Of a DNA stretch of 63,098 nt, positions 7,341 to 62,297 are shown one piece after another. The notes beneath the pieces are model-generated. The model did not search any database. It was not told the origin of the DNA and was given only the letters and a program-made list of their open reading frames with translations. The DNA comes from Candidatus Parcubacteria bacterium. GTDB lineage: Bacteria; Patescibacteriota; Minisyncoccia; UBA6257; 2-01-FULL-56-20. A program made the translations under genes and the position numbers. The stretch is taken from NCBI GenBank assembly GCA_041169145.1, contig JBEEJO010000001.1:1-63098 (forward strand). Direction: 5' to 3'. Each line of letters begins with the position of its first letter. Within the stretch, counting starts at the first letter, position 1.

Positions 7341-8858
7341 TTACATGCCTTTCAGGATATCTATCCTCGCGCCAAGCTTGTTCAACCGGTTCACGAGATC
7401 TTCATATCCGCGATTGATGGAATACACGTTCCGCAGAATGGACGTACCGCGCGCGGCAAGCATGCCGATCAACACGATAACTGCCGGGCGAAGCGCGGGC
7501 GGACAAACAACTTCCGCACCGCGAAGCTCCGTCGGGCCCTCGATATAGACACGATGCGGATCCGCAAGAATGATGTTCGCATTGAGCTTCGCGAGTTCCA
7601 TATAGTAGATGGCGCGGTTCTCGTAGACCCAATCGTGAATGAGCGTCGTTCCTTTCGCTTGCGTCGCAACGGGCACGAAGAACGGCAGATTGTCTATGTT
7701 CAGCCCGGGATACGGCTGAGCGTGAAGTTTCTCTTCAAGCGCAACGAGTTTGGACGGAAGGGTCTTGATATCAACAAGATTCGCCTCGCCGTTCCGGGCC
7801 TTATATCGGCGCAGGATCTTGTACCGGAATCCCATCTTCTCGAGCCTTAACAATTCCATCTCCAAGAAATCAATGGGGCATCGTTCAATGGTAAGCGATG
7901 AGCGAGTCGTCGCGGCAATGGAAAGGAAGAGCATCGCTTCGATGGGGTCCTCGCTCGGCTCGTATGCGACATCTGCGCGAATATCACGCTTGCCATGCAC
8001 GGTCATTGTGGTCGTTCCGATGCCATCCACGCGCACGCCGAGCTTCTCGAGGAACCGCGCAACATCTTGCACCTGATAGTTCGCTGAGGCGAATTTAATG
8101 ACGGTCTTGCCCGGCACGCGCGCGGCGGCCATGAGCGCATTTTCCGTCACCGTATCGCCGGCTTCGTACAGCACAATATCGGCAGGGCGAAGCTTTGCAG
8201 CGGTGATGTGATAGTTGCCTTTCGTCGCAGAGATCTTCACGCCAAGCTTTTCTAATGCGAACAGATGCGGACGCACCGTCCGTCGGCCAAGCCGACAGCC
8301 GCCAGGATACGGTATGGCAAATGCCTGCAGTTCATGGATAAGCGGACCCATAAGCATCAGGACGCTCCGCGTTTTTATCGCCGATGCGATGTTCAATCTA
8401 TCCATCCGAAGCGTTTTTGGAGGAACGATCTCCACGTCGCTTTGGCCCGACCAGCGAACCGTAACGCCGATGGATTGGAGCACTTCTATCACCCGGTTCA
8501 CTTCTTCGATTTTCGGCATATTGCGAAGCGTCGTCTTGCCGCGGTTCAAGAGCGATGCGCAAAGCAACCCAACCGCCGAATTTTTTGATGTGTTCACGCG
8601 AACCGTGCCGGAAAGCTTCCGCCCGCCCTCGATACGGAAGCTCATCGCGCCGGATGACAGCGTGATGATATTGCGCTTCAATACGCGGCCGATCTTTGCG
8701 AGCGTCTCGGTCGTGAAATTCTGCTCACCCTTTTCCATTCGCGCAACGGCACTTTGGCTCGTGTGCAAAGCCTTTGCTAACTCCTCTTGCGTCATTCCCG
8801 CATGTTCGCGAAGCGTTTCTATAAATCTGCCGATCTGTATTTGTTCTTCGGTTTTCAT
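7341..8858 (-). CDS. murA: XRE-type HTH domain fused to UDP-N-acetylglucosamine 1-carboxyvinyltransferase
   Basis: Residues about 10-65 (MTQEELAKALHTSQSAVARMEKGEQNFTTETLAKIGRVL) form an XRE HTH. The rest aligns with MurA, including the PGGCRLGRR catalytic Cys loop and the C-terminal INRGYEDLVNRLNKLGA. Confidence 0.85.
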   Translation of the reverse strand: MKTEEQIQIGRFIETLREHAGMTQEELAKALHTSQSAVARMEKGEQNFTTETLAKIGRVLKRNIITLSSGAMSFRIEGGRKLSGTVRVNTSKNSAVGLLCASLLNRGKTTLRNMPKIEEVNRVIEVLQSIGVTVRWSGQSDVEIVPPKTLRMDRLNIASAIKTRSVLMLMGPLIHELQAFAIPYPGGCRLGRRTVRPHLFALEKLGVKISATKGNYHITAAKLRPADIVLYEAGDTVTENALMAAARVPGKTVIKFASANYQVQDVARFLEKLGVRVDGIGTTTMTVHGKRDIRADVAYEPSEDPIEAMLFLSIAATTRSSLTIERCPIDFLEMELLRLEKMGFRYKILRRYKARNGEANLVDIKTLPSKLVALEEKLHAQPYPGLNIDNLPFFVPVATQAKGTTLIHDWVYENRAIYYMELAKLNANIILADPHRVYIEGPTELRGAEVVCPPALRPAVIVLIGMLAARGTSILRNVYSINRGYEDLVNRLNKLGARIDILKGM

Positions 8859-13872: not shown

Positions 13873-13900
13873 TTTACAAATCCTCATGTTCTGCTATTAT
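13873..13900 (+). promoter_or_regulatory. promoter TTTACA-16-TATTAT aimed at the first base of the tRNA-Leu 5'-half copy
   Basis: Hexamers at 13873-13878 and 13895-13900. The half-copy begins at 13911. Confidence 0.5.
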
Positions 13901-13910
13901 CATTGACGAC

Positions 13911-13985
13911 GCGCGGGTGGCGAAACCCGCCAGAGGCGGGCAAGCTGGCAGATTTAGCCGCCTTCGGCGGCCGCACTACCTTGAG
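13911..13985 (+). pseudogene. partial duplicate of tRNA-Leu(GAG): 5' half through the anticodon, interrupted by two GC hairpin inserts
   Basis: Blocks gcgcgggtggcgaaa, ctggcaga and gcactaccttgag are identical to 14236-14273. The inserts cccgccagaggcgggcaag and tttagccgccttcggcggcc each form a 6-bp hairpin. Confidence 0.8.
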
Positions 13986-13986
13986 A

Positions 13987-14229
13987 ATGGTAACAGTTTA
14001 TGTCATCAGAAGTTTAACGGGTAGTTTTAGATACGTCGGTATGACTGACAATTTGAAGCGTCGTTTGAAAGAACACAATTCTGGAAAAAGCAGAAGCACC
14101 CGAAGTTATGTGCCTCTCCGGCTAATCTATAGCGAAGATTGCAAGAATCGTATTCACGCCAGAGGCAGAGAGAAATTTTTAAAGAGCGGTGCTGGACGGA
14201 AGTTTCTTAATAATCTAGAATTTCGTTGA
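13987..14229 (+). CDS. GIY-YIG nuclease family protein (80 aa)
   Basis: VYVIRS...FRYVGMTDNLKRRLKEHNSG matches the GIY-(10-11)-YVG and R-x3-E-H-N core. The ATG sits immediately after the duplicated anticodon. Confidence 0.8.
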   Translation: MVTVYVIRSLTGSFRYVGMTDNLKRRLKEHNSGKSRSTRSYVPLRLIYSEDCKNRIHARGREKFLKSGAGRKFLNNLEFR

Positions 14230-14235
14230 GTAATT

Positions 14236-14319
14236 GCGCGGGTGGCGAAACTGGCAGACGCACTACCTTGAGGTGGTAGCGCCCGTAAGGGCTTGGAGGT
14301 TCAAATCCTCTCCCGCGCA
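14236..14319 (+). tRNA. tRNA-Leu (anticodon GAG), class II with long variable arm
   Basis: Acceptor gcgcggg/cccgcgc, anticodon arm ctacc-ttGAGgt-ggtag, T-arm ggaggttcaaatcctc, discriminator A, no encoded CCA. Confidence 0.9.
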
Positions 14320-14333
14320 CACAGAATCTTGCT

Positions 14334-62004: not shown

Positions 62005-62037
62005 ATGTAACAGTATAACAGTATCAAAACATCTTAG

Positions 62038-62169
62038 TGCGCAGGGAGGGATTGAACGTCGCTCGTCGCTATACAGCAACTCGCTCTCACGAACCCAGCG
62101 GTTCGTGTGCTCCGCCACGGGAAACCTCCCGGTTTCCCGACCCCATCCCCGTTCGAATCCCTCCTCTGC
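62038..62169. repeat. MITE-like palindromic element with tRNA-Tyr-derived inverted termini
   Basis: Left arm tgcgcagggagggattgaacg (a copy of the tRNA-Tyr 3' end with a 1-nt deletion). Right arm cgttcgaatccctcctctgc is its inverted copy. Two internal 8-9 bp hairpins. Confidence 0.6.
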
Positions 62170-62174
62170 AAGCA

Positions 62175-62207
62175 AAATTCTGGATACCGCAAGGGTATCC
62201 AGAATTT
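62175..62207 (-). terminator. intrinsic terminator after tRNA-Tyr
   Basis: 14-bp stem aaattctggatacc/ggtatccagaattt with loop gcaag, followed by TTTTGC on the minus strand. Confidence 0.65.
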
Positions 62208-62213
62208 GGTGTG

Positions 62214-62297
62214 TGCGCAGGGAGGGATTCGAACCCCCGTAGGCCGTAGGCCGCCACGTTTACAGCGTGGTACAATTGACCGCTCTGTCACCTGCGC
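62214..62297 (-). tRNA. tRNA-Tyr (anticodon GUA), class II long variable arm
   Basis: Acceptor gcgcagg/cctgcgc, anticodon arm ccacg-ctGTAaa-cgtgg, T-arm gggggttcgaatccctc, discriminator A. Confidence 0.9.

Follow-up and report, generated by a model that had tools for sequence, protein, structure and literature searches.

Within a 63-kb contig of a Candidatus Parcubacteria metagenome-assembled genome (MAG), the whole of which we analyzed and refer to as the window, the region from 13873 to 14320 is probably a copy of a selfish cassette that is widespread and resides at tRNA genes. Such a cassette would consist of a minimal GIY-YIG nuclease gene of the Slx1/UPF0213 type, encoding ~80 amino acids (aa), a direct partial duplication of a tRNA that always leaves one complete tRNA gene beside the open reading frame (ORF), and at least one GC-rich palindromic hairpin at the stem/loop junctions of the non-functional tRNA fragment. 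In the lineage of the window, a promoter within the last ORF codons would be a fourth part. Tandem arrays, pseudogenes and near-relatives in other phyla all argue for a mobile and selfish cassette.

The region is organized around an intact tRNA-Leu(GAG) gene on the forward strand (14236 to 14320 by ARAGORN; Rfam RF00005, 48.8 bits at 14236 to 14319). Upstream of it and on the same strand lies a hairpin-interrupted copy of nucleotides (nt) 1 to 36 of this tRNA (13911 to 13985), which forms the 5′ leader of the ORF and consists of three exact blocks, GCGCGGGTGGCGAAA (13911 to 13925), CTGGCAGA (13945 to 13952) and (C)GCACTACCTTGAG (13972/3 to 13985), equivalent to tRNA positions 1 to 15, 16 to 23 and 24 to 36. 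The identity of 36 out of 36 positions is far above chance, and each block has exactly two occurrences in the window, one in the half-copy and the other in the tRNA. Two inserts, each with a 6-bp GC stem, separate the blocks: the first (13926 to 13944, forward strand; CCCGCC-AGA-GGCGGG-CAAG, stem CCCGCC/GGCGGG) lies in the D-loop, and the second (13953 to 13971, forward strand; TTTA-GCCGCC-TTC-GGCGGC, stem GCCGCC/GGCGGC) between the end of the D-loop and the 3′ strand of the D-stem. The stand-alone 80-aa GIY-YIG ORF (13987 to 14229, forward strand) follows, and an in-frame TTG at 13981 is located inside the anticodon loop of the half-copy.

A promoter scan found three sites, with 0.7 expected from shuffled sequences, and two of them frame the arrangement on the forward strand. 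P1 (13873 to 13900, TTTACA-16-TATTAT with a TG extension) ends 10 nt ahead of the +1 of the half-copy; P2 (14193 to 14221, TGGACG-17-TAGAAT) falls in the last codons of the ORF. All of these parts had been proposed in a sequence-only reading of the region, namely the intact tRNA, a half-copy free of substitutions, the two GC hairpin inserts, the 80-aa GIY-YIG ORF and both promoters, and the dedicated searches recovered every one of them in the same place. That reading also had the identity stop abruptly after the anticodon. The exact blocks do end there, but a weaker likeness continues beyond them (aATGGTAa versus gTGGTAg).

The same layout recurs beside other tRNAs. A profile search of species-representative genomes with the ORF family returned 80 loci, 79 of which have a full ORF. 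In 69 of these 79, a same-strand tRNA abuts the ORF: 46 tRNAs come directly after the stop codon, beginning within a few bases of it, and 23 come before the ATG, ending 0 to 200 nt ahead of it. At typical tRNA gene density, we estimate that such adjacency would arise by chance in less than 1% of cases. The other 10 loci have no adjoining tRNA, and 4 of the 10 are at contig ends. A partial copy of the same tRNA occupies the opposite flank of the ORF in 57 of the 69 loci, with scores exceeding those of all 100 shuffles. Where the tRNA follows the ORF, the copy is the 5′ part and begins exactly at +1; in the mirror class, where the tRNA precedes the ORF, the copy is the 3′ part and ends at the tRNA 3′ end, often with the terminator duplicated as well. 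In 39 loci, the tRNA copy contains a palindrome close to CCTGCCTGCCGGCAGGCAGG.

These loci bear on where and in what the cassette sits. An insertion specifically in the anticodon loop, as suggested earlier for the window, does not hold at the family level, since the duplicated segment ends anywhere from nt 31 to nt 61 across loci and the mirror class has its ORF downstream together with a 3′ copy; the same sequence can be read equally well as an insertion at the tRNA +1. That the arrangement of half-copy, ORF and tRNA might be found at other tRNAs had also been raised, and it does recur, at ten tRNA types in several phyla. The partner tRNAs are mostly tRNA-Leu with all anticodons, and tRNAs for Arg, Gly, His, Ala, Asn, Lys, Ser, Glu and Pro are represented too. 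The hosts belong to Bacteroidota, Patescibacteria, Ignavibacteriota, Acidobacteriota, Omnitrophota, Nitrospirota and other groups, and some carriers are in culture, among them Niabella, Algoriphagus and Hanamia. Tandem arrays and decayed units (L010, L042, L019, L068, L148, L016 and L018) confirm repeated events at one tRNA, and in the Acidobacteriota pair L016/L018 the ORF is found on opposite sides of the same tRNA-Gly. The nearest relative of an ORF, at ~70% identity, is often in another phylum and yet beside the same type of tRNA. Nearest-neighbor pairs share the tRNA amino acid in 53 of 67 cases and the phylum in only 44 of 67, which fits horizontal spread into homologous tRNA genes. By these comparisons, the window locus belongs to a large family of tRNA-linked GIY-YIG cassettes. 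No description of the layout was found in the searchable literature, a scope that does not extend to subscription-only papers.

Metagenomes were scanned with the first 46 nt of the window tRNA-Leu, giving 120 loci, 104 of them non-redundant. A full ORF lies directly upstream in 5 or 6 of the 104 (~5%). Seven others (~7%) have lost the ORF but kept its last ~40 nt, in which TGGACGAA-17-TAGnAT abuts the tRNA, and in several loci (L142, L211, L139 and L223) the tRNA is joined directly to a 5′ copy, a hairpin and the first ORF codons. Of the 91 loci left, most carry no trace of a cassette, for a total of ~85 to 90 empty sites. Empty sites, for which the sequence-only reading had suggested a search, are thus the majority of same-tRNA loci at the family level, and the distribution of filled, remnant and empty sites indicates that the cassette is sporadic and decaying.

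The same loci clarify the roles of the two promoters. A promoter-like site was detected directly ahead of the tRNA +1 in 18 of the 91 remaining loci, and a promoter of the type TTGAAA-17-TATAAT stands 10 to 13 nt before +1 at many of them. P1 has the same spacing to the +1 of the half-copy, so the half-copy of the window holds the original place of the tRNA behind the original promoter, and P1 is positioned to transcribe the fragment, the ORF and the tRNA. P1 would accordingly be the original tRNA promoter, which now drives the leader and the ORF, and P2 the predicted replacement promoter of the intact tRNA-Leu. The 3′ remnants retain P2, so this promoter, which would now serve the intact tRNA, outlasts the loss of the ORF. 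Taken from sequence, this points to a cassette that rides on the promoter of a tRNA and supplies a replacement. The survival of this weak promoter after ORF decay goes beyond what had been noticed in the window itself, as does the membership of its hairpins in a conserved palindrome family.

The tRNA-derived leader is conserved. Its layout in the window is also present in L148, L236, L127 and L036. Among the window, L148, L236 and L127, the ORFs share ~55% of their residues, while the leaders, comprising the blocks and both hairpins, are 82 to 88% identical across lineages in which synonymous divergence of the ORF is saturated. Hairpin 2 is 100% paired in six lineages and shows changes on both sides at two of its pairs, with G-C, C-G and A-T at one and C-G and T-A at the other. 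Since the leader is conserved despite the divergence of the ORF, the fragment must be kept either by selection or by repeated conversion against the neighboring tRNA, and the earlier view that the half-copy is more than a simple decay product is borne out.

The inserts themselves form a family. In gapped alignments of the partial tRNA copies, 31 of the 67 inserts are exactly 20 nt long, the usual length, and their consensus is the perfect palindrome CCTGCCTGCCGGCAGGCAGG. This sequence occurs 26 times exactly and 64 times within four substitutions in 311 kb of loci, and 50 of the 64 copies are at most 150 nt from an ORF. The insert sites are stem/loop junctions of the cloverleaf: two positions in the D-loop, nt 26, the stem/loop borders of the anticodon arm, and G53/T54. 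Insertion is precise, and the tRNA bases at the insertion point are not duplicated. Inserts of 46 to 62 nt bounded by two 10-nt palindrome halves (L063, L075 and L078) recall a miniature inverted-repeat transposable element, an assignment that we set aside given the precise insertion and the lack of a target-site duplication. An asymmetric variant of the palindrome was found in both orientations. The hairpins of the window are diverged members of the same family: an intermediate, CCCGCCTGCCGGCGGGCAGG in L001, links hairpin 1 to the canonical palindrome, and hairpin 1 has homologues in L148, L236 and L127, with 94% of cells paired. CCGCC-type hairpins are common to a clade of Patescibacteria elements at the same tRNA (L148, L236, L127/L241 and L036/L192). 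Overall, hairpin type follows the ORF tree, with nearest neighbors sharing the type in 58 of 91 cases versus 39.5 expected, a value reached by 2 of 2000 shuffles.

Several viral contigs show further arrangements of the palindrome. In L105 (~2239 to 2330) and L082 (~8590 to 8660), an exact copy is located in the variable region of a tRNA-Met-like gene, and in L105 ARAGORN still reports a 92-nt tRNA-Met despite the palindrome; a hairpin in the variable region might be tolerated like a long variable arm. L114 (IMGVR_UViG_3300025106_000007) has eleven perfect tandem 21-nt units, CAGGCCATGCCTACCGGCAGG, related to the palindrome, at its contig end (3911 to 4142), and several palindrome variants nearby (1560 to 1760). 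Another contig, IMGVR_UViG_3300037242_000417, harbors six exact palindromes in 29.5 kb. In L085/L107 and L103, the palindrome is nested in, or lengthened by, other palindromes, which suggests that hairpin loops or junctions are preferred as targets.

The protein encoded by the ORF is a clear GIY-YIG domain (Pfam PF01541, E = 3.5e-14, 53.3 bits against a cut-off of 22.6), and its ATG matches the N termini of homologues (MxxVY...). Across an alignment of 31 sequences, Y5, G18, R26, H30 and E50 never vary, and Y16 and E62 are almost as constant. The AlphaFold2 (AF2) model has a predicted local distance difference test score of 92.8, and its best Foldseek matches are all GIY-YIG domains (1zg2, SLX1, I-TevI and UvrC). 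The closest structures are UPF0213 BH0048 and the SLX1 nuclease domain, with template modeling (TM) scores of 0.66 to 0.68 and a root mean square deviation of 2.4 Å, followed by I-TevI and UvrC. A profile search of the PDB ranked the matches similarly (1zg2, 4.4e-10; 1ywl, 2.7e-8; SLX1 next), and I-TevI was a weaker match. The structure specificity of SLX1, which acts on branched DNA and stem-loops, agrees with stem/loop junctions and palindromes as targets, and the nuclease of the window is probably oligomeric and structure-specific. The family alignment has no conserved Asn after E62, consistent with the criterion for the Slx1-like branch (PMC1564403). By both Pfam and the AF2 model, the 80 aa make up the catalytic domain alone, with no DNA-binding module. 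At E ≤ 1e-10, the family comprises 6,252 clusters among 1.84 billion representatives. With no match among PHROG families and one weak match in 50,697 phage records, a phage origin of the ORF was dropped. The ORF looks functional, with its catalytic residues kept; compared with relatives, synonymous sites are saturated, and the ratio of nonsynonymous to synonymous substitution rates (dN/dS) is 0.23 where measurable. The ORF in L236 is frameshifted.

The boundaries of the ORF are entangled with the tRNA in some loci. In L018 of Acidobacteriota (1950 to 2228), the sole in-frame start of the GIY-YIG gene is an ATG within the preceding intact tRNA-Gly (nt 42 to 44), and thus the reading frame traverses the 3′ half of a tRNA gene. 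In L020, L042 and other loci, the ORF stop codon falls within the first bases of the downstream tRNA, so that RNase P cleavage would yield a stop-less mRNA. Many family proteins in databases have 20 to 55 additional N-terminal residues read from the tRNA fragment; these extensions are probably gene-calling artifacts.

How might such a cassette spread? The nuclease may introduce breaks into tRNA genes or into the hairpin structure; recombination through the homology that the tRNA copy provides would then carry the cassette into empty tRNA genes of matching type. When repeated, such events would produce tandem tRNA-ORF arrays, comparable to those obtained in experiments with phage SegB. The hairpins could be the cognate site of the nuclease. 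They could also poison deletion, because any tRNA rebuilt by recombination between the direct repeats, downstream of a hairpin, would be dead, with that hairpin disrupting it. Most likely, the hairpins in the leftover fragment serve the cassette in one or both of these roles, as a cognate site and as a guard against loss.

In function, the closest known analogue is SegB of phages T4 and T6. SegB is ~220 aa long, and its region beyond the catalytic domain has a DNA-binding role. It is a free-standing GIY-YIG homing endonuclease encoded in a tRNA gene cluster, cuts tRNA genes at the TpsiC motif, homes with flanking tRNA DNA by break repair and, by way of recombination, causes units of tRNA plus segB to be amplified (PMC2330249; PMC13096335). 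As in the cassette, a GIY-YIG gene is situated among or next to tRNA genes and shares its genome with tRNA genes that can be cleaved, and the amplified units of tRNA and nuclease resemble the arrays in L010, L019 and L042. SegB differs in being larger, with a region beyond the catalytic domain, as the description of a C-terminally truncated “SegB short” shows, and in being a phage-borne member of the homing endonuclease lineage, whereas the window ORF is chromosomal, belongs to the Slx1/UPF0213 lineage and is nearly absent from phages. The cassette, unlike SegB, is always accompanied by a partial tRNA duplicate and palindromic inserts. Presence and absence with identical empty targets, as expected of SegB-like homing, is seen among the 104 loci. 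The sequence-only reading of a homing element thus stands insofar as the element is mobile and carries a duplicated 5′ part that preserves the tRNA; its classical homing logic does not, because there is neither an immunized tRNA nor a DNA-binding domain.

Several observations weigh against the selfish cassette as we describe it. The tRNA beside the ORF is the same as the tRNAs at empty sites, its 3′ part included, and hence insertion does not immunize the target as it would in classical homing. Target immunization was rejected on these grounds. The cleavage-resistant occupied allele typical of homing is likewise missing, the leftover fragment being the only part that is interrupted, and so is the module for binding a long site. 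A catalytic domain of 80 aa has no obvious means of recognizing one. At the window locus itself, a search for relatives by way of the upstream membrane protein (80%, 73% and 69% identity) did not find an orthologous empty site, since the closest relatives have no tRNA-Leu there; the empty sites are those of the family. Exact look-ups of the window ORF and of the downstream protein gave no match. The predicted RNA fold of the leader is no more stable than that of shuffled sequence (z = −0.99). The exact palindrome is present in 35 stretches of viral contigs, only one of which adjoins such an ORF, so the palindrome also exists alone and its link to the nuclease is not exclusive. Finally, variants of the canonical palindrome have mostly changed on one side, with 1 compensated, 17 G-T and 47 mismatched pairs. 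With almost no covariation, selection on structure alone was dropped as an explanation for the canonical palindrome. One-sided changes would be expected of decaying copies rather than of a selected structure, and exact copies together with one-sided decay would fit a sequence-specific partner or recent copying better than selection for any hairpin.

A bolder version of the selfish cassette, which we put forward tentatively and hold to be rather unlikely, is that the palindrome and the 80-aa Slx1-like nuclease make up a new two-part mobile system, similar to repetitive extragenic palindromic (REP) sequences and their associated tyrosine transposases (RAYTs) but built on a GIY-YIG hydrolase. The nuclease would recognize the hairpin or cruciform as well as the stem/loop junctions of structured-RNA genes, and would seed the palindrome, whose two 10-bp inverted ends abut each other, exactly at junctions of this kind. 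The palindrome would in turn lock the nuclease gene beside an essential tRNA: recombinational loss of the ORF would leave the palindrome in the only functional tRNA, which would amount to addiction through a tRNA gene. Like REP/REPIN-RAYT systems and palindrome-targeting insertion sequences, the cassette has a short GC-rich palindrome flanking a small nuclease gene and also occurring in solo copies, palindromes nested in palindromes, and longer inserts bounded by palindrome halves. In contrast, the RAYT protein is an HUH/Y1 transposase, not a GIY-YIG enzyme, and REPs are not tied to tRNA fragments.

Alternatively, the leader and its hairpins could be an RNA-level device, that is, a cis-regulatory or stabilizing element of the nuclease mRNA. 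It might protect the 5′ end, hide the start codon through TACC/GGTA pairing or tie expression to the processing of the tRNA by RNase P. This is compatible with mobility, and we consider it possible but doubtful. It would account for the leader having changed far less than the ORF has at synonymous sites, for the compensatory changes in hairpin 2, and for three C-to-T changes in hairpin 1 of L192 after which the sense strand can still form G-U pairs. Also in line with it are the position of the ATG or TTG start inside the remnant of the anticodon arm and a stop codon that abuts or overlaps the tRNA +1 in many loci. However, the leader fold is not significant, and the mirror class has its hairpin-bearing fragment downstream of the ORF, behind a tRNA that carries a terminator. 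The palindrome, moreover, occurs in both orientations and away from any ORF, and any stable hairpin would suffice for stabilization, yet one 20-mer has been kept across phyla.

A domesticated host gene is an improbable explanation. The ORF would then be a vertically inherited Slx1-like housekeeping or repair factor that is cotranscribed with tRNAs, with a role for instance in handling R-loops or secondary structures where tRNA genes are transcribed at high levels, and the tRNA fragments would be by-products of local rearrangement. Purifying selection on the ORF and the structure-specific SLX1 nucleases as nearest structures agree with this, as does the literature, in which stand-alone Slx1-like proteins of prokaryotes are classed as mainly vertical and repair-related, and the selfish GIY-YIG enzymes are placed in the UvrC+ lineage (PMC1564403). 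Stand-alone proteins of the Slx1-like/UPF0213 type (BH0048, 1zg2; EF2693, 1ywl) and SLX1 are indeed the best sequence and fold matches of the window ORF, and they too are minimal domains. But the members described here act like a mobile cassette with a bond to tRNA genes. No more than ~5% of same-tRNA loci hold the ORF, and remnants and pseudogenes accompany it; a locus can hold several copies and tandem arrays, the tRNA partners are many and different, and the closest relatives of an ORF are often from another phylum.

It is very improbable that the 5′ copy and the 3′ half are joined in RNA after removal of an insert, either as a group I intron or by protein-dependent splicing of a split tRNA. 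Group I introns do occur in bacterial tRNA-Leu genes, and the insertion point in the window is close to the anticodon loop. The anatomy already contradicts the idea, since a complete tRNA gene follows the ORF. Nor is there room for a ribozyme, with less than 10 nt unaccounted for by the ORF and the leader, and Rfam (E up to 10) finds tRNA only, in the window region as well as in 20 canonical loci. The NCBIfam model grpIintron_endo scores 22.5 bits against a cut-off of 56, and the variable break point (nt 31 to 61) and the D-loop hairpins in the 5′ copy are further points against splicing. A parallel is provided by rRNA genes of the candidate phyla radiation (CPR), in which non-intron insertions with GIY-YIG ORFs are found at the top or base of stem-loops (PMC11270868). 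These share with the window locus the host group, a GIY-YIG ORF in structured-RNA genes and the absence of group I or II intron features. They differ in lying within rRNA genes and in presumably being removed from the rRNA, and neither a duplicated gene part nor a palindrome has been reported for them.

An assembly artifact, or a scar left when an integrase-type island duplicated one end of a tRNA, can practically be dismissed: many family members are on short contigs and duplicated tRNA segments are typical of integrase att sites, but the same layout is found in dozens of independent assemblies, complete genomes among them, the duplicated part in the window is the 5′ end, no integrase is encoded by neighboring ORFs and the unit is just ~330 bp, and so the locus is genuine. 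Integrase islands at tRNA genes do resemble the cassette in their target and in using a duplicated segment to keep the gene intact. In those islands, a tyrosine integrase duplicates the 3′ end and the element is kilobases long, whereas the cassette has no integrase, duplicates either the 5′ or the 3′ part and carries hairpin inserts in the leftover fragment.

If the selfish cassette is real, the minimal Slx1-like GIY-YIG domain, taken until now for an ancestral repair protein, would encompass a selfish lineage of very large size, with thousands of 50%-identity clusters that colonize tRNA genes in Bacteroidota, Patescibacteria and other phyla. It would account for many annotations as “GIY-YIG nuclease family protein,” for over-long N-terminal calls, and for tRNA fragments and assembly breaks near tRNAs. 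It would also provide a clear case of promoter replacement, in which an essential tRNA acquires its promoter from the end of a selfish ORF and keeps it when the ORF is gone, and it draws attention to a 20-bp palindrome that is the same to the last base in different phyla.

A second tRNA on the contig has a related appearance. The tRNA-Tyr(GTA) gene on the reverse strand (62213 to 62297) is followed, on that strand, by a terminator hairpin, part of its own T-arm copied in inverted orientation, two further hairpins and then a direct 20-nt copy of its own 3′ end, TTCAATCCCTCCCTGCGCAC (~62037 to 62056), the whole spanning 62037 to 62297. The 159 nt beside this tRNA are too short for any ORF. The 3′ copy begins exactly at T54, the palindrome junction of the class with the ORF downstream, and the array looks like what such an element would leave behind after losing its ORF.

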